Assembly (NCBI GenBank): GCA_018671515.1
Contig: JABHHN010000047.1
Coordinates: forward strand, 1 to 60,266
Direction of reading: 5' to 3'
From: an archaeon
Lineage (GTDB): Archaea; Nanobdellota; Nanobdellia; Woesearchaeales; GW2011-AR15
DNA: 60,266 nt
Below are positions 8,807 to 49,945 of this stretch, piece after piece. Positions within the stretch are counted from its first letter, which is position 1; every line of letters begins with the position of its first letter. Position numbers and translations under genes: made by a program. Under the pieces are notes generated by a model. That model did no database searches. It saw nothing but the letters and a program-made list of their open reading frames with translations, and was not told where the DNA came from.

Positions 8807-9538
8807 ATGAAAATCCTATATACAAAAAATAAAAAAAACAAGAAATATCTAATAAAAGATACAGAAAAAGATTATCATAGTCAATATGGACTTATCAAAT
8901 CTGAAGACATAAAAAAATCAAACCCAGGTGATATCCTAACAAGTAATATTAATGAAAAATTCACCATCCTTGATGCGGGATTTCTCGATAAATATTTTAA
9001 AATTAAAAGAGGACCACAAATTATCCCATTAAAAGATATTGGATCAATTATTACAATGACTGGAATAAATAAAAATTCAATTGTCCTTGAAGCAGGTGGA
9101 GGAAGCGGTGGATTGACATGTATTCTTGGTCACCTCTGCAAAAAAGTATACTCTTATGACATAAGAGATGATTTTCAAGAAATTGTCAAAAAAAATATAG
9201 AATTTCTTGGATTAAAAAACGTAAAAATTAAAAAAGGGAGCATCTATGAAAATATTAAAGAAAGAGAAATTGATATGATTTCTCTTGATTGTCCAGAACC
9301 TTGGAAAGCCATAAATACAGTCAATGATGCATTGAAAATTGGAGGATATATTGTATCTTATTCACCAACAATAATACAAACTGCTGATATGGTCAATAAT
9401 ATGATTGATAATTTTTTACACTTAAAAACAATTGAAATTATAGAAAGAGAATGGGAAGTAATTGATAGAAAAGTAAGACCTAAATCTGTTGGAATTGGTC
9501 ATAGTGGATTCCTATCATTTTTTAGAAAATTGTCCTAA
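8807..9538 (+). CDS. trmI: tRNA (adenine-N1)-methyltransferase, TrmI/GCD14 family
   Basis: KRGPQIIPLKD, VLEAGGGSGGLT, YDIRDDF, ISLDCPEPW, YSPTIIQ, REWEV...RP...GHSGFL. Confidence 0.9.
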   Translation: MKILYTKNKKNKKYLIKDTEKDYHSQYGLIKSEDIKKSNPGDILTSNINEKFTILDAGFLDKYFKIKRGPQIIPLKDIGSIITMTGINKNSIVLEAGGGSGGLTCILGHLCKKVYSYDIRDDFQEIVKKNIEFLGLKNVKIKKGSIYENIKEREIDMISLDCPEPWKAINTVNDALKIGGYIVSYSPTIIQTADMVNNMIDNFLHLKTIEIIEREWEVIDRKVRPKSVGIGHSGFLSFFRKLS

Positions 9539-9737: not shown

Positions 9738-10385
9738 GTTCTTTTTATTTTTCATATTTCCAATAATTAGACCTAATATTATCAAAATTGTCGAAATAAG
9801 AAATATTCTAAAAATAATAAAAAAAGCCATATCTGAAAAGTAACCTTGTGGAAAAAGATTGATCATATTTGAAGTTCTAACATCAAATAACCAATTATCA
9901 ACAAAAAAAGCTCTATGAAATTTATCAAAAATAAATTCAAAACCAATTATAGAATTAAATAAAATCAATAAAACAAATATTAAAAAAATAAATGACCCTG
10001 AAATAATCATTATTGATGGAAACAATAATTTAAACTCTTTTTTTTTTAACAATATAAAAATTATATAAATTAAAACAATTAGATTAATTAAAAATAAAAA
10101 TTTAATTTTTAAAAGTAATATTTTGACATCTTTTAGATGTGAAATTTCACTCTCATTAAAAAATCCTGAATCTAATTCTCCTTTTGAATGAAAATAATCA
10201 AAAATAGATTTAACTTTCATTTTTGCAAACCCAGTTTCAAATTTATTATAAACTACATACTTATCATACGATTTTTCATATAGTTCTAAATTTTCTATAT
10301 TTGTCAAAATTATTCCTAAAACTAATGATAAAATTAAAATTATTACACTTAATATAATGAAATATTGTCTCTTTTTATTCTTCAT
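9729..10385 (-). CDS. DUF1461/TIGR01906-type membrane protein (Lit lipoprotein intramolecular transacylase-like)
   Basis: E.SHLKDVK.L and F..IFDKFHRAFF..NWLFD...MINLFPQGYF motifs with both conserved His; four TM segments. Confidence 0.75.
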   Translation of the reverse strand: MKNKKRQYFIILSVIILILSLVLGIILTNIENLELYEKSYDKYVVYNKFETGFAKMKVKSIFDYFHSKGELDSGFFNESEISHLKDVKILLLKIKFLFLINLIVLIYIIFILLKKKEFKLLFPSIMIISGSFIFLIFVLLILFNSIIGFEFIFDKFHRAFFVDNWLFDVRTSNMINLFPQGYFSDMAFFIIFRIFLISTILIILGLIIGNMKNKKNLF

Positions 10386-10433
10386 AAAATGTTAGGATAA
10401 GCTTTAAATATTAAAAAATTAACCCTCTGTTTT

Positions 10434-10832
10434 ATGGGGGGCATCAAAACTTTGGTTTATTTTATGTTATTTGTGTTTATTTCTAATCCTGTTTTTGGTA
10501 TGAAAGTAAATTATATTGATTATTATGATTATCAACTTGGACCTGATTATGGATATAGACCATATTTTGAATATGATCTTGATGATGATAATGATGACAC
10601 ATATCTTGGTTATAGAGTTAAAGAAGAACCTATAGAATATTATTATTGCAAAACAAAAGATGGAGATGAAATTGGTTTTTGGCAGGAATGTACAAATCCG
10701 TTCTATACAGAAGGAATAAGATTATCAGAAACAAAAAAAACAAAAGGTTATAATGTAAATCCAGGAAAAAAATGGGATTATCTTGATAGCCTTAATCAAC
10801 CAGTAAAATCAATTAAAGTTTTGTTTAGATAA
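10434..10832 (+). CDS. Hypothetical secreted Tyr/Asp-rich protein
   Basis: Signal-peptide-like N-terminus, acidic/aromatic mature part. Confidence 0.6.
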   Translation: MGGIKTLVYFMLFVFISNPVFGMKVNYIDYYDYQLGPDYGYRPYFEYDLDDDNDDTYLGYRVKEEPIEYYYCKTKDGDEIGFWQECTNPFYTEGIRLSETKKTKGYNVNPGKKWDYLDSLNQPVKSIKVLFR

Positions 10833-21546: not shown

Positions 21547-22224
21547 ATGACCATTGAAAATAAACAAATTCTAAAATATCAAAGACAAATAATTAAAACT
21601 GATGATTCCTATACCCATAAAATACCTTGCTTTTCAAAAACATATGAATTTAAACACCAATCAATATTAAGTAAAGATGATGAATTTAATGACATTTTTA
21701 CTACTTGTTCAAATTATTTATTAGATTCAGAACATTCAATAAGAGTCAGTGTCTTAATTGAAAAATTTTCCGAATTATTAAATCTCCCAAATAACTTATG
21801 TTTGGATTTTAAAAAATTCTCACTTATCCACGATGTTGGAAAATTATTAATTAACCCAGACATATTAAATAAACCAGGTAAATTATCTGAAGAAGAATAT
21901 GAAATTGTTAAAAAACACTCAGAATTAGGCGCTGAAATAATTGGAGATGATCCTTTTTTCAAAACAGGTAAAGATATTTCTCTTTATCACCATGAAAGAT
22001 ATGATGGACAAGGTTATCCAAGAAAAATAAATGGAAATAGTATTCCAATTTCTGCTAGAATTTTATCTATTATTGATGTATATGATGGACTTACTTCTGA
22101 TAGAGTTTATAGAAAAGCTTTACCATTATCAGAAGCAATTAACATAATGAAAGAAATGACTGGAAAGTTTGACCCTATATTTTTTAAAATATTTTTAACA
22201 AATATTCAAAATTTAATAGAATGA
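21547..22224 (+). CDS. Stand-alone HD-GYP domain phosphodiesterase
   Basis: EHSIRV, IHDVGK, LNKPGKL, KKHSELG, HHERYDGQGYP, IPISARILSIIDVYDGLTSDRVYRKA: all metal ligands present. Confidence 0.9.
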   Translation: MTIENKQILKYQRQIIKTDDSYTHKIPCFSKTYEFKHQSILSKDDEFNDIFTTCSNYLLDSEHSIRVSVLIEKFSELLNLPNNLCLDFKKFSLIHDVGKLLINPDILNKPGKLSEEEYEIVKKHSELGAEIIGDDPFFKTGKDISLYHHERYDGQGYPRKINGNSIPISARILSIIDVYDGLTSDRVYRKALPLSEAINIMKEMTGKFDPIFFKIFLTNIQNLIE

Positions 22225-22748
22225 AAAAGAAACAAAAACAAAAAAAATTACGTTTATATTTATTAGTGCTAATAAGCATAATATCACTTTTAATTGCTCT
22301 AAAACATCTTGATTCAATTTTAATAATTTTAATTTGTATTTTAGTGACAGGAATTAATACTTTTCTTGCTTTTTTGAGTTCAAAAATAAGAGGTCTTAAT
22401 CTTGAAGTTTTTGGACTTTCTTGTGCTTTAATTTTATTTACAAACAAAACAATCAAACTTATTTTTCTTGTTAAATTATTAATCTCATATGTTGTTTTTC
22501 AAGGATTTGACATATGGGCTTTCCCATACCTATTTGGTACTATTTTAACATATATTTTATTTTCATTCATAAGTCTACCATTTACTCTTAATATATTAAT
22601 AATTATTATTATAGTAAATAATCTTATTACCTATCTTTTTTTTGCATTGATTCATGGAAACCCACTAAGACCTATAAAAGATACAGTTATTTCAACGTTC
22701 CTTAATTTTATTGTAATGCAAATTGTCACTCTTTTATTATTTTTTTAA
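22221..22748 (+). CDS. Integral membrane protein (5-6 TM), distant paralogue of 29023..29535
   Basis: Highly hydrophobic; IRGLNLEVF matches IRNVGIELA at the same relative position in 29023..29535; ATGA-coupled to HD-GYP. Confidence 0.6.
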   Translation: MKKKQKQKKLRLYLLVLISIISLLIALKHLDSILIILICILVTGINTFLAFLSSKIRGLNLEVFGLSCALILFTNKTIKLIFLVKLLISYVVFQGFDIWAFPYLFGTILTYILFSFISLPFTLNILIIIIIVNNLITYLFFALIHGNPLRPIKDTVISTFLNFIVMQIVTLLLFF

Positions 22749-23061
22749 TTTTATTTTTTAATGTAGGAATTTTCTCTTTTACAACTTCCCACACTCTTTT
22801 TATATCCATTTCAGAATAAGCGTGAATTAAAATATCTCTTAGTCCACAAATTTTTTTCCATTCTATTTCATTATTTTCAATTTTTATAAATTCAGGTAAA
22901 TTTTTTGATGCTTCCCCTATTATCTCTAAATTTCTTATAACTCCATCTTTAACTAAGTCATTTTCAAGAAAGTTACTTTCACCCATATTTTTGGTATATT
23001 TTTCTATTTTTTTTATACATTCTAAAATATCATTTAGATATACTCTATAATCCTTTGACAT
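22726..23061 (-). CDS. HEPN (DUF86/HepT-like) RNase toxin
   Basis: MSKDYRVYLNDIL, AVIRNLEIIGEA-like segment (GVIRNLEIIGEA), W..I.GLRDILIHAY (R-x4-H-x-Y). Confidence 0.9.
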   Translation of the reverse strand: MSKDYRVYLNDILECIKKIEKYTKNMGESNFLENDLVKDGVIRNLEIIGEASKNLPEFIKIENNEIEWKKICGLRDILIHAYSEMDIKRVWEVVKEKIPTLKNKIKKIIKE

Positions 23062-23497
23062 ATTTTGCTTCCTCTTTCACATATTCAACTCCTTTTTTTA
23101 ATGCCTTAATTTCAACAAGATCTACTCTCTTTTTTAATAAATCCTCTAAATAAAATTTAGTTTCCATATAAAAATCAAATTTTGAACTATTAAGTTCAAC
23201 TAATAAATCAATATCACTATCTTTTTTTTGCTCTCCTCTAAGATATGAACCAAAAAGACCTATTTTTTTTATACCTAATTTTTGTAATTTTATTTTGTTT
23301 TTTTGTAATTTTTTTAAAATTTTTTCAGCTGTTAAATCATTTTTCAAATGATCATATAGTGATTTTTTTTCTAATTCAATATATTTTTCAACAATAAATT
23401 CTATTGTTTCCCCTTTATCATTAAAATCATTTATAGCTTTAATTACATTAAGTATTTTATTTGTTCTTAGATTTAATTTTATTAGTGCGTTGACCAT
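23045..23497 (-). CDS. MNT nucleotidyltransferase antitoxin with an extra N-terminal DUF2683-like domain
   Basis: GLFGSYLRGEQKKDSDIDLLV (GS-x10-DxD), KRVDLV. The first ~45 aa align with the antitoxin at 54831. Confidence 0.85.
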   Translation of the reverse strand: MVNALIKLNLRTNKILNVIKAINDFNDKGETIEFIVEKYIELEKKSLYDHLKNDLTAEKILKKLQKNKIKLQKLGIKKIGLFGSYLRGEQKKDSDIDLLVELNSSKFDFYMETKFYLEDLLKKRVDLVEIKALKKGVEYVKEEAKYVKGL

Positions 23498-39202: not shown

Positions 39203-39322
39203 TTTAATTTATTCACCTTTGTTTTTACTACTGTTCAATAACACAAATCATTATATAAATTATTCCATGAATTTTTTTATCAAATAATAAAATATATATA
39301 GTTGAATACGTATTCAGTAAAT

Positions 39323-40312
39323 ATGAGAAATTCACCAAACATTGACTTAAAAGATAAACGTATTTTAAGAGAGATTTTCTCAAATGGAAGAATGCCATAT
39401 TCTGAAATAGGTAAAAAGGTACGTTTAAGCAAAGAAGTTGTAAGATATAGAATAGAAAAATTAAAAGAAAAAGGACTACTATTAGGTTTTAATACTGTTT
39501 ACAATGTCAGAAAAATAAAATGGCATATTTTTTTAGTATATATCAAATTAAAAGATATAAATAATGAAAAAGAAAATGAAATAATAAAGTACCTCATTGA
39601 CCACCCAAATATTGCATGGTGTGTAAAATGCATTGGAAATTATGATTTTGTTCTAAAAATTTTTGTCAAAGATAGAATCCATTTAGGAAATATACTAAAA
39701 GAAATGGAAAAAAAATACAATAATTTTGATGAATTCATTGTTGACAATACTATCAAAGAAATGCCGATTCCAAACGCTTATCTTTATGAACCATTAAAAC
39801 CAGATAGAATAATTGATATTGATAATAAAACCATAGATGTTGATTATCTTGATATAGAAATCATGAAATTAATATCAATAAATTCAAGAATACAACTCTC
39901 TGAAATGTCTCAAATTCTAAATACACCAAGAGATACTATAAAATATCGTCTTAAAAAATTAGAAAAAGAAAAAGTAATAATTACATATAGACCTAGTGCT
40001 TGGTCAGGTACAAAATCTTTAGGTTTTAGTTGGTATCTAGTATTGCTTAAATTCAAACAACTTGATTCTAAATCAAGATCAACTTTAATGGAATTCTTAA
40101 CCACACACACTAATCTTGCTTATGTGTATGAACTATTAGGAGAACATGATTTAGGATTTGAAATCAGGTTAAAAACTGGAGATCAATTAAATGAAATATT
40201 AATGGAAATAAGAGCCATTTTAGGTTCAGATTTTAAAAGAAATGAATTGTCATTAATATTAAAAGAATACAAATACACCTATTTTCCAGAATGTGTTAAA
40301 GAAATTATTTAA
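39323..40312 (+). CDS. Tandem (two-unit) Lrp/AsnC-family regulator
   Basis: Two HTH + RAM units; divergent from the membrane protein/ansA pair. Confidence 0.85.
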   Translation: MRNSPNIDLKDKRILREIFSNGRMPYSEIGKKVRLSKEVVRYRIEKLKEKGLLLGFNTVYNVRKIKWHIFLVYIKLKDINNEKENEIIKYLIDHPNIAWCVKCIGNYDFVLKIFVKDRIHLGNILKEMEKKYNNFDEFIVDNTIKEMPIPNAYLYEPLKPDRIIDIDNKTIDVDYLDIEIMKLISINSRIQLSEMSQILNTPRDTIKYRLKKLEKEKVIITYRPSAWSGTKSLGFSWYLVLLKFKQLDSKSRSTLMEFLTTHTNLAYVYELLGEHDLGFEIRLKTGDQLNEILMEIRAILGSDFKRNELSLILKEYKYTYFPECVKEII

Positions 40313-40326
40313 AAAATATAAAAAAA

Positions 40327-41904
40327 TTACATTGTTAATTCTTCATCGTGAATCAAGAATCTACCTTCATTTAATTGTTTCCAAACATTTGATGAAGGTG
40401 TAATCCAACTATGCATAGAAACTAATGAGTTATCTTCCTGAATTTTTTCCCAATCTTTATTAGTATAATCATGTATTTCAAATTTCCCTTTTGTTTTTTC
40501 ATATATTTCTCTTGGTTTGCCAATTAATCTACTTTCATGACCAAATACATAAAGAGTTGAATTATCACCTTTTTTTTCTCTTTCTTTTGCATGTGACAAA
40601 GCAATATCTACTTTTACAAGTGTTTCAAAAATTTCTCCTAAAAACCTTGTATCTTCAGTAATAGATCCTTCTTTTTTGCTTGTAGAAACAAAATCAGTAA
40701 AAGAAGACCTTAATTTCAATTCTTGACCAAAAAAATTATATTCAGATTTTTTTACTTCTTCTTTTACTTCTTCAATAAAACCTGCAATGGTTTCTATTGC
40801 ACTTAAATAATCTTGTTTAATATTTTTAAATGGAACAGCTATTATTGTCTCATCTCCACCAACTGTTGCAATATAACTATCTTCTCCATCTTTACCATCT
40901 TCACCAAATTTTTCATTTAATCTTTGTCTTATCATTTGATTATAATTTTCAATATGTTCATCTACATCCCTAAGAAGATTTACTAATAAAGCATTTATAT
41001 TTTTTTTATCTGGTCCTTCATCTTTCTTTTTTCTATATTCATTTGATAATTTAAGCATGGTATCTTCCATACTTATCCTATTCATTATATTCAATCCTAT
41101 CGCATCAAACATCATAAGCATGTAATCTCCTTGTTCTGTTAATTTAAGATTGAAAAAAGGTCTTGTAAGATATCCTTCGTGTTTAGAATCTAACATTGAA
41201 AAATCTAAAACATCTGTTATAAAATCAGGATTTATTTCCATATTTGGATTATCTATATACTTTGTAATAAGGTCTTTTTTTCTCTCAAAATTTTTTTTTG
41301 CTTCTTTTCTTGCAGGACTATTCTGAAATGAATCTAATACATTTAAACCATTGTAATAAAAATCAATTGCATGCCTTGTATTTCTTTTATTATCATTTTC
41401 ATTATTATTAAAACCTAATTTTTTTAATTTTTCATTTGATATTCCTTCTTTTAAAGTATAAATAGAGTTTTCATTTTCTCTATATAATTTCATCAATTTA
41501 GGATTGAATCTAGAAACACCATCTTTATTTATTTCTTCAAATATATTTATTATATCTCCATTATAAATAACTGATATATCTTCTTCAATTATATAATCTC
41601 GAATATTTCTTAATTTTAATATATGATTTTTAAACTTTTTTTCATCAAAACCAACAACAGGTTCATCTAAAAAAGCAGCCATGTTTTTTGCAATAGTTGC
41701 CTTTGCACGATTTAATAAATAAAGATAATCTAAATCTGTAGACTCTGAAAAATCTACTTTTGAAAAACCACCAAATACATATGGATGGACAAGGGAAGCA
41801 ATAGAATCTCCTTCAAGTTTAAAATACCAATCTTGAGATCGAGATTTAGTTATGATCTCATTCATTGTAGATTCTACTACTGTTTCTAAATCAATTTTTC
41901 CCAT
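40327..41904 (-). CDS. Protein with a C-terminal GGDEF-like / nucleotide-cyclase palm domain
   Basis: MLMMFD267AIGLNIMN275, YIATVG349GDET, LVKVDIALSHAKEREKKGDN match the D...N, GGDEF and AD.ALY.AK..GRN elements. N-terminal ~250 aa unrecognised. Confidence 0.55.
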   Translation of the reverse strand: MGKIDLETVVESTMNEIITKSRSQDWYFKLEGDSIASLVHPYVFGGFSKVDFSESTDLDYLYLLNRAKATIAKNMAAFLDEPVVGFDEKKFKNHILKLRNIRDYIIEEDISVIYNGDIINIFEEINKDGVSRFNPKLMKLYRENENSIYTLKEGISNEKLKKLGFNNNENDNKRNTRHAIDFYYNGLNVLDSFQNSPARKEAKKNFERKKDLITKYIDNPNMEINPDFITDVLDFSMLDSKHEGYLTRPFFNLKLTEQGDYMLMMFDAIGLNIMNRISMEDTMLKLSNEYRKKKDEGPDKKNINALLVNLLRDVDEHIENYNQMIRQRLNEKFGEDGKDGEDSYIATVGGDETIIAVPFKNIKQDYLSAIETIAGFIEEVKEEVKKSEYNFFGQELKLRSSFTDFVSTSKKEGSITEDTRFLGEIFETLVKVDIALSHAKEREKKGDNSTLYVFGHESRLIGKPREIYEKTKGKFEIHDYTNKDWEKIQEDNSLVSMHSWITPSSNVWKQLNEGRFLIHDEELTM

Positions 41905-42070
41905 TTTTTAATGTATTTTTACTCTTATAAGTTCTAATCTTTTATAAATATTATGTATATTTACCACTTATTAGTAATTATTAGTGAATATTTACAATTA
42001 ATCTCAAAATTAATGAGATTTTTTGAAATTTTAGAGAATTTATAAAAATGTGCATAAATTCCAAAATTGC

Positions 42071-44002
42071 ATGAAATTCGAGTTATCATCAACATTTAAA
42101 CCAACTGGAGACCAACCACAAGCAATTAAAAAGCTCTCTGCAGGATATGGGAAAAACCCTATGCAGACACTTCTTGGTATTACAGGATCAGGGAAGACTT
42201 TTTCCATGGCAAATATTATTCAGAAAGTTCAAAAGCCTACATTAATTTTATCTCATAACAAAACTCTTGCTGCACAATTATACAGTGAATTCTCATCATT
42301 CTTCCCTAAAAACAGGGTCGAATATTTCGTATCATATTTTGATTATTATCAACCTGAAAGCTACCTTCCAACATCTGACACATACATAGAAAAAGATTCT
42401 AAAGTAAATGAAAAAATTGAAAAATTGAGATTAAGAGCAACTGCATCCCTTATGTCAAGAAAAGATGTGATTATTGTTTCATCTGTCTCTTGCATCTATG
42501 GTATTGGAAGCCCTGATAATTTCAAGAATATGAGTTTTGAAATAAAAAAAGGACTAAATATTGATAGATTATCAATTCTAAAAAAACTTATTTCAATACA
42601 ATATGAAAGAAATGATACTGAATTAAAACCTGGAAATTTCAGAGTAAGAGGAGATATAATTGATGTAATTTTAGGATATGAAGAAGATATCTTGCGTATT
42701 GAATTATTTGGTGATGAAATAGAAACAATCAAAATTCTTGATCCTCTTAATATGAATGAAAAGGAAAACATAGATGAAATCACAATATATCCTGCAAGAC
42801 ATTTCGTAGTCCCACAAAATATAATCCAAGGTGCAGTTGATACTATAACTGATGAACTAGAAGAAACACTTCCAAATCTTGAAATGCTTGAAGCACATAG
42901 ATTGAAACAGAGAACAAATCACGATATAGAAATGATACAAGAACTTGGGTATTGTTCTGGAATTGAGAATTATTCAAGACATTTTGATAGTAGACAGGCA
43001 GGGCAACCACCTTTTACATTACTTGATTTCTTTCCAGATGATTTTTTATTTTTCATTGATGAAAGTCATGTTACAATCCCTCAACTTCATGGAATGTACA
43101 AAGGAGATTATTCAAGGAAAAAAAATCTTATTGACCATGGATTCAGACTTCCAAGTGCATTTGACAATAGACCACTTAAATTTGAAGAATCTAAAAAATA
43201 TTTCAAAAACGCAATATTTGTTTCTGCAACACCTGGAGATTGGGAATTAGGTCAATCCAAAAATAATGTTGTTAAACAAATCATCAGACCAACAGGATTA
43301 CTTGATCCTGAAATTACTGTCAAAAAATCAGAAGGACAAATTGATGATTTAATAAATGAAATACAAAAGACTATTGAAAAAAATAATAGAATTCTTGTAA
43401 CTACACTTACAAAAAAAATGGCTGAATATCTCTCTGATTATTTAGCAAAAGCAGGAATCAAAGTAAGATATCTTCATTCTGAAATTGACACACTTGAGCG
43501 AACAGAAATAATAAGACAATTGCGTCTTGGAGAATTTGATGTACTTGTTGGAATAAATCTATTACGTGAAGGAATTGATATACCTGAAGTTGAACTTGTT
43601 ACAATTCTTGATGCTGATAAAGAAGGATTTTTAAGAAATGATAAAAGTCTGATTCAGACTATTGGACGAGCAGCAAGAAATTCAAAAGGTAGAGTCATAA
43701 TGTATGCAGATAAAATGACTGATTCAATGAAACGAGCAATCAAAATTACTCATGACAGAAGAAAAAAACAGATTGCATATAATGAAAAAAATGGAATCAC
43801 TCCACAGACAATCATAAAATCTGTTCCTGAGAAAAAAATTGATATAAAAACTACAAAACATATCCCTAAATCAGAAATACCTAATCATCTAATTGAACTT
43901 GAAACTCAGATGAAGATAGCAGCTGAAAGTCTGGAATTTGAAAAAGCAATTCAGATAAGAGATGTGATGAATGATTTACGAAAAAAACAAGGTGAAAAAT
44001 AA
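42071..44002 (+). CDS. uvrB: Excinuclease ABC subunit B
   Basis: [69 protein letters not shown] domain. Confidence 0.97.
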
Positions 44003-45103: not shown

Positions 45104-47251
45104 ATGTCAAATAAATTCAAAGCTCATATTTCAGTTCTTGGTCTAATAAAAGAATCTCAGATAGGACTTGGACGGCAACTCCTAGCAGATGTAATTACTG
45201 GGGATGAATCTGCAAGAATAAAAAAATTAAGATTAGATAAATTAATTCATTTCTCAACACTTCCACTTTATGATAAGAAAGATGTTTTTGAATTACTTGA
45301 TTTGCTTTTATATAAAAAATTCATAGAATATAAACCAATTCCAAATAATAAATTTATAAAAGTTTTATCAGTCACAGCAAAAGGTGAAGAAGAATTAAAA
45401 AATCCAAGTGAAGAATTAAAACTTACAAAATCATTTGAGGGATATTATTCAACATTTGAAAAAATTACAGATGAAGATAAAATTAAATTTGAAAAATTAG
45501 GAAATATTCTAACTGGACTTTCCGATGAGCAAAAAAAGGCAGTAATCCACAGTAATAAAAATATTCTTTGTATAGCTGGTGCTGGAAGTGGTAAGACGAG
45601 AGTTCTTACAAAAAGAGCATGGTATCTAGCACAATACAAATCAATTCCACAAGACAAAATCTTAGCAGTAACATTTACAAGAAAAGCAAGAAAAGAAATG
45701 CAAAATAGATTAGAAGATATGATTCCTGGAAACCTTATTCAGATTGAAACATTCAATTCATTTTGTGAAAAATATCTAAGAAAATATGAAGATCTGATTT
45801 ATAATAAAAAAGTAAACGTGATGAGTTATAGAAAAAGACTAGAGATATTTGTTAAAATTTTAAAAGAATTAAATCTGACAACTGATGCAGTATTAAATAA
45901 ATATTATTCAAAAAATAAAATTTATTCAAATGATAAAAAAACATTATTTTTTGGTCTAATAAATGACATGTTCTCAGTCTTAGATTATCAAAGAAATAAT
46001 GATATCTCTTTTAATGAATTGATGGATCTTATTTCAGGACATTATGATTATCAAATGGCATCAACAATCAAAGATATAATCAGAAAAATTGTCCAAAAAA
46101 AAGATGAAGATTCATTACGTGACTATACTGATCAGATTGTTCATACTATTGAATTTTTCAAAAAAAATCAAGAAATGATTCCTAGATTCGATCATGTATT
46201 AATTGATGAGTATCAAGATGTAAATTCTCTTCAATTTGAATTTATACAATTATTAAAACCAAATAATTTATTTTCTGTTGGTGACCCAAGACAATCAATT
46301 TATGGATGGCGTGGCTCACGTATTGATTATATTTTAGATTTTGAAAAATTATTTCCTGGTTCGTCAATATTGCAATTAAGCACAAATTATAGATCTAATA
46401 AAGAAATTGTTGAATTATGTAATAATGTAATTGGTGACATGAAATTACCTGATTTAAAATCATTTAAAGAAAATGGTGAAAAAACAATTAATTTTGTAAA
46501 ACACAAAAATGATGATATTGAAAATGCTTTTGTTGCACAGAGTATTTTAAGTCAAAATTGTAAAAGAAATGAAATTTTCGTTCTTGCTAGAACCAATAAA
46601 CAAATAGAAAAATTATCTTTAGAACTTAATAAATTAAAAATAAGATATCTAAAAAGAACAATAGAAGAGAAGAAAACAAATCTTGAACCTACACAAGATG
46701 AAATTACACTCTCAACAATACATGCAATAAAAGGACTTGAAGCTTCAGTTGTTTATTTTATTGGTGCAGGTGCAAAGAATCATCCTTGCAAAGCAAATGA
46801 ACATCCAGTTTTAGAGGCAGTAAAAATCAATGATACATATGATAAATATGCAGAAGAATTAAGATTATTCTATGTTGCAATATCACGTCCTCAGGAAAAA
46901 TTAATTATTAGTTATACTGGAACTCTTGCATCATATGTAAAAAAAGAAATTTTTGATAAATTCAATAAAAATTCTAAAATTAAATTTGATAAATCATCTA
47001 AAAAAGAAGTTGTCTATAAAACTAATAATAGTTCTTCAGGATTATATCATGAATTAAAATCATGGAGATTATCTGAATCACAAAGACTTAACTGTCCACC
47101 ATATTATGTTTTTAATGATAGAACCCTTGATGAATTATGTTCTGTATTACCTTCTAACTTTGAAGAACTACAAGAAGTCAGTGGATTCGGTCCTGTGAAA
47201 GTGAAAAGATTCGGGAAGGATATTGTTAGGATTGTAATGGAGAATTGTTAG
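45104..47251 (+). CDS. UvrD/PcrA-like SF1 helicase with N-terminal RQC-like and C-terminal HRDC domains
   Basis: AGAGSGKT, DEYQD, VGDPRQSIYGWRG, NYRS, STIHAIKGLE, LFYVAISR; N-terminal GLGRQLLADVITG...LDKL...LSVTAKG; C-terminal ELKSWR...PPYYVFNDRTL.EL...GFGP.K..RFG. Confidence 0.88.
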   Translation: MSNKFKAHISVLGLIKESQIGLGRQLLADVITGDESARIKKLRLDKLIHFSTLPLYDKKDVFELLDLLLYKKFIEYKPIPNNKFIKVLSVTAKGEEELKNPSEELKLTKSFEGYYSTFEKITDEDKIKFEKLGNILTGLSDEQKKAVIHSNKNILCIAGAGSGKTRVLTKRAWYLAQYKSIPQDKILAVTFTRKARKEMQNRLEDMIPGNLIQIETFNSFCEKYLRKYEDLIYNKKVNVMSYRKRLEIFVKILKELNLTTDAVLNKYYSKNKIYSNDKKTLFFGLINDMFSVLDYQRNNDISFNELMDLISGHYDYQMASTIKDIIRKIVQKKDEDSLRDYTDQIVHTIEFFKKNQEMIPRFDHVLIDEYQDVNSLQFEFIQLLKPNNLFSVGDPRQSIYGWRGSRIDYILDFEKLFPGSSILQLSTNYRSNKEIVELCNNVIGDMKLPDLKSFKENGEKTINFVKHKNDDIENAFVAQSILSQNCKRNEIFVLARTNKQIEKLSLELNKLKIRYLKRTIEEKKTNLEPTQDEITLSTIHAIKGLEASVVYFIGAGAKNHPCKANEHPVLEAVKINDTYDKYAEELRLFYVAISRPQEKLIISYTGTLASYVKKEIFDKFNKNSKIKFDKSSKKEVVYKTNNSSSGLYHELKSWRLSESQRLNCPPYYVFNDRTLDELCSVLPSNFEELQEVSGFGPVKVKRFGKDIVRIVMENC

Positions 47252-48255
47252 ATTAAGAAATTATTCCAATAATTTATTATTAATTCATCTCCTAAAAAAT
47301 GAATTATTTTATAGAATGATTTATTATCCATTTTTGTTAAAGAAATATTATCTCCTTCTGACAATGAAGATAAATAATCTACTCTTTTCTTTTTTCTAAC
47401 TATTATTGGTGGGTAATTATGATTCATTAATATGATATTTACTAACATCCGTCCTGTACGTCCATTTCCATCTGAAAATGGATGAACTTTTTCAAATTTC
47501 TGATGAAAAATAGATGCTAAAACAAATGGATGCAATTCTTTTTTAATTTTTTTATACCAATTTAAAAGTATATCCATATCTGACTTTACATATTTTCCAG
47601 GAGTTGTATTGAATTTTGATCTAAATACTCTTACATCATGAAATCTATATCCAGTTCTATTATCAATATTTTCTAGTAAATTATCGTGAATTTCAATTAT
47701 TGATTTATGATTGATATTTTTCTTTTTTTCTAATAAATTAAAAAAAACTTTTTTAGTGTTTTGAAGATCATATATTTCTCTTAATGTTTTATTTTTTGGT
47801 GTAATATTTTCATTAAGTAATTTTACTGCTTCCTGTAAATTTATAGTATTCCCTTCAATTGATGTGGTATTATATGCAAATTCAATCAAATAGTTATTGT
47901 ATATTTCTCTGATTGTTAATTCATTTTCTTTTAAAAAATAATTATTGAAATGATATTTTACGGATTCAATTTCTTCAAGTAAATTTTTTTCTAAGTAAAC
48001 ATTAGATTTAATTTTTTGTTCCTTTATTTTATTTAATATATATTCAGAAGTTATGAATTTCTTAATATTTCTATATGCTTTTCTAATTTCCTTTTTATAT
48101 ATTTTTTCAATTGATTCTAATTTTTTTTCTATTTTTTGTGGATCATTTCCTAAATATGCAATATCTTTAGTCACAGATTTATTATTTATTTTCTTTGACA
48201 TCCTTAAATAATAATATGGCTTTCCTGAAATGATTTTTTTGTATATGTATACCAT
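47248..48255 (-). CDS. Fic-domain protein with N-terminal extension
   Basis: HPFSDGNGRTGR catalytic motif and TTSIEGN autoinhibitory motif. Confidence 0.9.
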   Translation of the reverse strand: MVYIYKKIISGKPYYYLRMSKKINNKSVTKDIAYLGNDPQKIEKKLESIEKIYKKEIRKAYRNIKKFITSEYILNKIKEQKIKSNVYLEKNLLEEIESVKYHFNNYFLKENELTIREIYNNYLIEFAYNTTSIEGNTINLQEAVKLLNENITPKNKTLREIYDLQNTKKVFFNLLEKKKNINHKSIIEIHDNLLENIDNRTGYRFHDVRVFRSKFNTTPGKYVKSDMDILLNWYKKIKKELHPFVLASIFHQKFEKVHPFSDGNGRTGRMLVNIILMNHNYPPIIVRKKKRVDYLSSLSEGDNISLTKMDNKSFYKIIHFLGDELIINYWNNFLI

Positions 48256-49840: not shown

Positions 49841-49945
49841 ATTTTAAAAAAAGAAGGAGTTATTTATAATTATTACTATTTAGTAGTATATACTGTATTA
49901 TATTATTAAGAGATAACAGTTTTGGATGAGAGATTGTTATAAAAA

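Follow-up and report, generated by a model that had tools for sequence, protein, structure and literature searches.

A divergent GGDEF-type palm domain in a small, fast-evolving archaeal protein family, and a truncated allele of its gene

Does an archaeal gene without a recognizable annotation encode a nucleotide cyclase, and is the putative enzyme paired with a phosphodiesterase on the same contig? These questions are raised by an open reading frame (ORF) of 525 amino acids (aa) that the ORF listing gives at positions 40327-41904 on the reverse strand of a 60,266-nucleotide (nt) stretch of DNA, hereafter the window (contig JABHHN010000047.1 of the Woesearchaeales assembly GCA_018671515.1). 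An earlier note, made from the sequence alone, had proposed a GGDEF-like cyclase acting together with an HD-GYP hydrolase encoded 18 kb away. We find that aa 239-448 (40561-41190, reverse strand) are a true, very divergent homolog of the GGDEF diguanylate-cyclase palm, on the evidence of fold, profile homology and residue conservation. The gene as a whole is, in our fairly confident reading, a member of a small unannotated family with this divergent palm, the window copy being a deletion-derived allele that is not demonstrably paired with the HD-GYP enzyme.

AlphaFold2 (AF2) models were made for the window protein, using an 11-sequence alignment, and for a full-length homolog (P0009). The window model (predicted local distance difference test, pLDDT, 73.8; predicted template-modeling score, pTM, 0.75) has pLDDT values of 75-95 across aa 50-250 and below 50 from aa 456, and contains a beta-alpha-(insertion)-beta-beta-alpha-beta unit at residues 261-405, which together with the terminal helix spans residues 261-444. 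The same palm unit is found in the model of P0009 (pLDDT 83.2, pTM 0.85). When either model was compared with the PDB by Foldseek, the top ~30 matches were nearly all GGDEF domains (probability 1.0, E = 5e-5 to 1e-3), with template-modeling scores of 0.55-0.69 when normalized on the target, i.e., on isolated GGDEF domains. Among the viral models of BFVD, the best matches were phage GGDEF proteins.

Consistently, the family palm was aligned with canonical GGDEF domains by hhalign (Prob 94.3%, E = 1e-7) across the second half of the domain, against a thin profile of three canonical GGDEF sequences from related archaeal genomes. The palm carries a family-specific insertion of ~30 aa (aa 281-310; 40975-41064, reverse strand), delimited by AF2 and hhalign, which forms two helices between alpha1 and alpha2. 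When the insertion (~aa 281-309) was cut at four different boundaries, the alignments covered 128 columns (Prob 95-96%, E = 6e-9 to 7e-8), the register was identical in all four runs, and the match extended from beta1 to the terminal helix, that is, over the whole core. The GGDEF-type palm fold that the earlier note had proposed is thus borne out, well above chance level, by prediction, structural search and profile comparison alike, as is the inserted helical segment, which is ~30 rather than ~40 aa long.

The motifs named in the earlier note are all present at the residues given there, i.e., MMFD at 264-267 (with D267), N275, VGGDET at 348-353 (40846-40863, reverse strand), VDIALSHAKE at 432-441 and KGDN at 445-448. 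The palm elements follow one another as alpha0 (DSKHEGYLTRPFF), beta1 with D267, alpha1 with N272 and N275, the insertion, alpha2 from D315, the hairpin G349-G350-D351-E352, beta4 with R399, and the terminal helix VDIALSHAK440. By profile comparison, the alpha0 motif D.K..GYL.R..F corresponds to the GGDEF element D.LTGL.NRR.F. Conservation was assessed in an extended family alignment of 13 sequences, one of them a copy that consists of the palm alone and is embedded in a giant protein of another family. N275, D315 and G350-D351-E352 are invariant in all 13, K440 is kept in 12, and D267, which lies within the strand 261-269, is Asp in 12 and Glu in one; these are the most conserved positions of the palm. 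The fifth residue of the hairpin motif varies among T, S, V, I, L and N and is never F, and the second basic residue of the terminal helix, R446 in PleD and K444 in the window protein, is S, R, L, I or Q in other members.

In the diguanylate cyclase PleD, D327 is the first metal-binding Asp, N335 and D344 contact guanine, the GGEE hairpin contributes the second metal site, and K442 contacts a phosphate, as does R446 of the same terminal helix. From the alignment register, we take D267 to be equivalent to D327, N272 to K332, N275 to N335, D315 to D344, G349-G350-D351-E352 to GGEE, and K440 to K442. N275 is located 8 residues past D267, the same spacing as in PleD, and D315 belongs to the first helical turn ahead of the hairpin in both AF2 models. 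The second guanine-binding Asp had been described as not clearly placed, but the invariant D315 aligns with D344 in all four alignments once the insertion is removed; that doubt can probably be lifted, and if the correspondence holds then chemistry of the cyclic di-GMP (c-di-GMP) type is not disfavored. An RxxD I-site, an optional feature of GGDEF domains, was not found 5 residues before the hairpin, where DSYIATV stands instead, as had been noted before; the only nearby RxxD is R312-D315, ~35 residues upstream of the hairpin. Because the most conserved palm residues map onto D327, N335, D344, GGEE and K442 of PleD, a GTP-using cyclase would be the best reading of the palm. In the following scheme, substrate, product and dimerization requirement are our inferences. 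D267 and D351/E352 would hold two Mg2+ ions, N275 and D315 would read the guanine base and K440 would bind the phosphates, while the flanking domains would bring two GTP-loaded palms together, such that GTP could be condensed to c-di-GMP or a closely related guanine dinucleotide.

How widespread is this type of protein? When 1.84 billion representative proteins were searched exhaustively with phmmer, 15 matches were returned, 10 of them with E <1e-10; leaving aside pieces of the same gene, the matched proteins are 550-655 aa long and 27-34% identical. A word-indexed homolog search, with the protein or the alignment as query, recovered near-identical fragments only. The family consists of ~12 sequence clusters and is almost confined to one taxonomic family of the DPANN-type order, where it is carried by 5 of the 20 genomes in the window's taxonomic family; among 401 genomes sampled from the order, it is carried by four, one of them with the palm-only copy. 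All full-length members (550-655 aa) combine an N-terminal region of ~240 aa, the palm, and a C-terminal domain of ~110-150 aa that ends in a conserved R-S/G-G hairpin. The N-terminal domain of the window protein (aa 1-238; 41191-41904, reverse strand), delimited by alignment and AF2, is an alpha/beta plus helical domain of a type without known match. It matched nothing in Pfam or among PDB sequences and resembles neither GGDEF nor the protein's remaining domains; a comparison aimed at an internal duplicate of the palm gave no signal. It holds the strongest motif of the family alignment, YYNxLNxLDTF (Y183, L187, N188, L190, D191), as well as R142. The C-terminal domain alone likewise found no match in the PDB. 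The idea that it is a degenerate half-palm making a Cas10-like pseudo-dimer is unproven: the order of strands and helices fits, HMMER gives the right register against SiaD and hhalign a P of 0.008, but the hhalign Prob is 4.8%. As judged from these comparisons, this is a new, small and fast-evolving archaeal family, and the copy in the window is a candidate GGDEF-type cyclase.

The palm-only copy (MDYKRFATVNA...QGDENF) lies in a 3733-aa open frame from another family of the order (L018; G212:C22, ~9960-10460), where protein-kinase-like GxGxxS...AIK modules come after it. Possible remnants of the family gene with stop codons are present in two genomes (G007 and G014).

The family resemblance of the window protein ends near residue 491, and the C-terminal domain of the full-length homologs is absent. 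Comparison with these homologs and with a sister allele identifies aa 449-492 (40429-40560, reverse strand) as the remaining start of the linker to that domain. The last 33 residues and the stop codon (aa 493-525; 40327-40428, reverse strand) derive from the 3'-terminal part of an asparaginase-like gene, since this tail is 70% identical to the C-terminus of the asparaginase-family protein P0013 (BLASTP, E = 2e-13). The ORF is thus composed of the family-specific N-terminal domain, the divergent palm, a linker remnant and a foreign tail, and aa 456-525 are predicted by AF2 to be disordered. The undeleted gene order is seen around the nearest relative, P0001, on the sister-allele contigs L001 and L002 and on a 117-kb JGI contig: the family gene (as 418-aa and 218-aa ORFs), an HD protein, a methyltransferase, a 213-aa gene, a 351-aa asparaginase-like gene and an AsnC regulator. 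The missing C-terminal domain is encoded by the 218-aa ORF. DNA similarity between the window and L001 stops at window position 40434, and in both arrangements 14 nt separate the stop codon from the convergent AsnC regulator gene (39302-40312). The junction is not an assembly artifact, because the identical 525-aa protein occurs in three other assemblies and junction-spanning fragments occur in further ones. On the simplest reading of these sequences, an in-frame deletion of ~3.4 kb would have removed the C-terminal domain and ~3.5 downstream genes, fusing the last 33 codons of the asparaginase-like gene to the linker.

The sister allele coexists with the window allele in one population. From window position 49913 to 42114 the DNA is 100% identical to L001, whereas beyond ~42113, across the intergenic stretch and along the entire gene, the identity is 64-78%; the second allele is ~70% identical in DNA and sits beside flanks that are 100% identical. 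The boundary of the strain-variable segment can be placed by this drop in identity at 41905-42113, and the switch from 100% to ~70-78% at 42114/41917, at the 5' end of uvrB, marks its edge. One metagenome-assembled genome (GCA_018657865.1) holds both alleles on separate contigs, which break at this locus. In the sister allele, a frameshift in a run of seven A (L001 ~9203-9215) separates the 418-aa ORF from the 218-aa ORF; one added A would rejoin the two, and L001 and L002 are identical at this run. The frameshift may reflect real slippage, phase variation or an assembly error. Between the two alleles, the ratio of nonsynonymous to synonymous substitution rates (dN/dS) is lowest in the palm (0.18), compared with 0.51 in the N-terminal domain and 0.36 overall, and by this estimate the palm has been the most constrained part of the protein. 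The presence of both a full-length allele and a truncated one in this population provides a natural experiment on the role of the C-terminal domain. Both the truncation of the window copy and the existence of the second allele had escaped the earlier note.

Several observations weigh against a functional, divergent GGDEF family represented by the window gene. No meaningful match for the window protein was found in Pfam, NCBIfam, PADLOC or PHROGs, and neither it nor any of 11 family members matched a Pfam model, PF00990 included, at E up to 10; a PDB sequence search with the window protein likewise returned nothing useful. The insertion of ~30 aa is likely the reason why the Pfam GGDEF model fails, because without it the GGDEF alignment covers the whole core. 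At the residue level, Asn (N272) takes the place of PleD K332, no Arg precedes the GG of the hairpin (the position of PleD Arg366), and the motif Phe is replaced by T, S or V; in addition, the match of D315 to D344 is based on the insertion-removed alignment and on helix position, not on coordinates. At the gene level, the domain missing from the window allele is retained in every full-length homolog, and the sister allele is frameshifted. No receptor, EAL or HD-GYP protein was found to co-occur consistently with the family.

Could the palm then be a catalytically silent GGDEF-like scaffold or receptor, degenerate and retained for binding? Many bacterial GGDEF domains are degenerate, the Lys332 position and the motif Phe are altered here as described, and most carrier genomes have no partner phosphodiesterase or receptor. 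If the domain were non-catalytic, however, the metal ligands and the base and phosphate contacts would be expected to be lost first, and these are the very residues that are invariant among proteins of 22-33% identity. We consider a silent scaffold unlikely.

The truncation and the frameshift bear more directly on the window copy, which may, perhaps together with the sister allele, be a decaying gene, with an ancestral palm in a 525-aa fusion that is inactive or misfolded. Because the window allele is truncated and the nearest allele is frameshifted, the gene may be decaying in this genus. The lost C-terminal domain is kept in 8 of 8 full-length homologs and in the second ORF of the sister allele, the tail is predicted to be disordered, and the family is patchy (5 of 20 genomes) with possible stop-codon remnants. 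A decaying gene fits less well with 525 open codons, an in-frame deletion that uses the native stop codon of another gene, an identical protein in four assemblies and intact catalytic residues throughout; the low dN/dS of the palm also speaks for constraint, though it mostly reflects the history before the deletion. Decay thus seems to us possible but not likely. The palm of the window copy is intact in its residues, and its putative activity is uncertain.

The earlier note had also seen a resemblance to Cas10 and to minimal CRISPR polymerases (mCpol). A signaling polymerase of this type, making cyclic oligoadenylates or signals of the c-di-AMP type for an anti-virus or conflict system, would belong to the same palm superfamily, and stand-alone mCpol enzymes such as OptS of Panoptes occur without cas genes and likewise lack a clean linear GGDEF motif (PMC12657218). 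The resemblance is present, in that Cmr2/Cas10 and type III-D chains (3w2w, 8s9x, 8s9t) are among the weaker Foldseek matches, but it is much weaker than that to GGDEF: Cmr2/Cas10 and soluble adenylyl cyclase rank far lower among the PDB matches of both models. The alpha0 motif GYL.R..F and the terminal helix AD.AL..AK are specific to GGDEF, and Asn at the base-reading position goes with guanine and Ser with adenine (PMC12657218); the family has Asn. Furthermore, mCpol is a minimal single palm, whereas the family comprises three domains in ~550-650 aa. No PADLOC match was obtained, and no cas, CARF, SAVED or effector gene was found in any of nine neighborhoods, in agreement with the absence of nearby cas genes already pointed out. 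Very fast evolution, patchiness, a strain-variable segment with two alleles, and decay are typical of conflict genes and count in favor of this alternative, which we nonetheless hold to be quite improbable.

That speed is best seen next to pth2, the peptidyl-tRNA hydrolase gene. At five loci, one in G006 and four on metagenome contigs, pth2 is preceded on the same strand, at a distance of 27-46 nt, by the family gene, which is divergent from a gene of ~190 aa for a multi-transmembrane protein and from an MnmC-like methyltransferase gene (Methyltransf_30). Across these loci, PTH2 is 70-74% identical and the membrane protein 39-49%, and the family protein is only 22-33% identical. The occupant of this slot, between the membrane-protein gene and pth2, varies strongly among genomes. 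In the genus of G006, G011 (L051) has a canonical GGDEF protein of 346 aa there; G008 (L052) and G012 (L035) carry other very divergent GGDEF-like genes, of 355 aa (GSGGDEY) and 543 aa (IDLNGLKNFND...DGGDEI), respectively; in G018 (L040) the slot is taken by an unrelated gene, and in G007, G016 and G019 (L038, L047 and L045) it is empty. The window genome has its pth2 on a separate contig, preceded by a different gene. The occupancy of the slot supports a GGDEF origin of the family and shows an unusually rapid turnover at this site.

The same adjacency would fit an RNA- or tRNA-directed nucleotidyltransferase of the Thg1/palm type, tied to the neighboring hydrolase. Thg1 shares palm ancestry (cited in PMC12657218), the methyltransferase is nearby, and none of the 20 genomes in the taxonomic family, the window genome included, has a Thg1 gene (PF04446). 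We rejected this candidate on structure and distribution and regard it as highly improbable: no Thg1 structure is among the top 50 Foldseek matches of either model, no family member matches PF04446 in Pfam, in G011 the slot is filled by a canonical GGDEF protein, the gene is not adjacent to pth2 in the window genome, and its absence from 15 of the 20 genomes implies that it is not an essential tRNA-maturation enzyme.

One may go further and suppose a lineage-specific, three-domain, GGDEF-derived family that makes a guanine-based (cyclic) dinucleotide under conflict-like diversifying turnover. Evolution 2-3x faster than that of syntenic neighbors, swaps with canonical and divergent GGDEF genes at the pth2 slot, two alleles diverged by 30% in otherwise identical genomes, and repeated truncation all speak for such turnover. 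We offer this suggestion with considerable doubt; if true, nucleotide signaling in these episymbionts would be tied to host/virus interaction rather than to housekeeping.

The second question was whether the putative cyclase works with the HD-GYP enzyme. The phosphodiesterase gene is indeed intact, as the earlier note had stated: at 21547-22224 on the forward strand, 18.1 kb from the cyclase gene, its product matches the HD_5 profile (PF13487; E = 1.3e-34) and has all HD and GYP motifs (HDVGK and HHERYDGQGYP). The proposed synthase/hydrolase pairing did not hold up. The two genes are 18 kb apart, and HD_5 occurs in only one of the five carriers in the taxonomic family, in which it is restricted to the window genome and G004. 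Among the four family carriers of the order sample, HD_5 is present in one, equal to the base rate of 24%. Within the taxonomic family, EAL was found only in G013 and PilZ only in G010. The HD protein encoded beside the sister allele was also considered as an HD-GYP enzyme and rejected, as it matches the generic PF01966 and is not conserved beside other family members. The pairing is therefore not supported by anything beyond presence in the same genome.

The HD-GYP genes of the order follow canonical GGDEF genes instead. HD_5 is found in 96 of the 401 genomes, i.e., about a quarter, and canonical GGDEF (PF00990) in 193 (48%), i.e., about half. Canonical GGDEF accompanies HD_5 in 63 of 96 genomes, as compared with 130 of the 305 others (odds ratio 2.6, P = 1e-4, Fisher's exact test, uncorrected for kinship). 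The window genome (89.6% complete), in a six-frame search of which PF00990 was not found, is one of the 33 genomes with HD_5 and without canonical GGDEF, so that a pairing particular to this genome is conceivable. Genes of the c-di-GMP type are thus widespread in this DPANN-type order, and a GGDEF-type gene is not exotic here. The earlier note had called such a system in a DPANN archaeon uncharacterized; this was overstated, given the canonical GGDEF genes of the order and the cyclase activity of archaeal GGDEF proteins published in 2026 (PMC13725321).

The use of c-di-GMP-type messengers in archaea is only now being tested (PMC13725321). Sidorov et al. (2026) examined archaeal GGDEF proteins in reporter assays (Vc2 riboswitch, rdar and motility) and found diguanylate cyclase activity (PMC13725321). 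The window family is likewise of GGDEF type and encoded by archaea, but those proteins are canonical, recognizable by Pfam and equipped with bacterial-like sensor modules, whereas the window family is far more divergent and lineage-restricted. Structurally characterized GGDEF cyclases (PF00990; PleD 1w25/2v0n, WspR 3bre/3i5b, DosC 4zvf, GcbC 5euh) share the palm fold and the order of its elements with the window protein, which differs in being invisible to the Pfam model, in its insertion, in the substitutions described above and in the missing I-site; the REC, PAS or GAF sensors are replaced in the family by N- and C-terminal domains without known match. With respect to mCpol, the structural likeness is weaker, Asn replaces Ser, and there is no adjacent effector gene. 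With GGDEF genes common in the order and archaeal GGDEF activity already published (PMC13725321), what is new is a family of divergent GGDEF variants, not a new kind of system. Because a GGDEF derivative that keeps every catalytic and base-reading residue is missed by standard profiles, the number of archaeal cyclase candidates is underestimated in Pfam-based censuses. As a compact protein set, the family lends itself to tests of product specificity. Caution is advised with the window gene itself, a truncated allele with an unsupported HD-GYP pairing.

The gene is flanked in the window by uvrB (42050-44002, forward strand) and by the double AsnC/Lrp regulator (39302-40312, forward strand). The HD-GYP gene is followed by a 175-aa ORF without family match (region 22221-23497); the two overlap by 4 nt at the HD-GYP stop codon and are probably transcribed together. 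On the opposite strand, 3' of this ORF in the same region, lies a HepT/MNT (nucleotidyltransferase) toxin-antitoxin pair. Beyond uvrB, a gene for a Fic-domain protein (47248-48255, reverse strand) adjoins one for an RQC-UvrD-HRDC helicase (45104-47251, forward strand), and both are 100% identical in the co-occurring strain.

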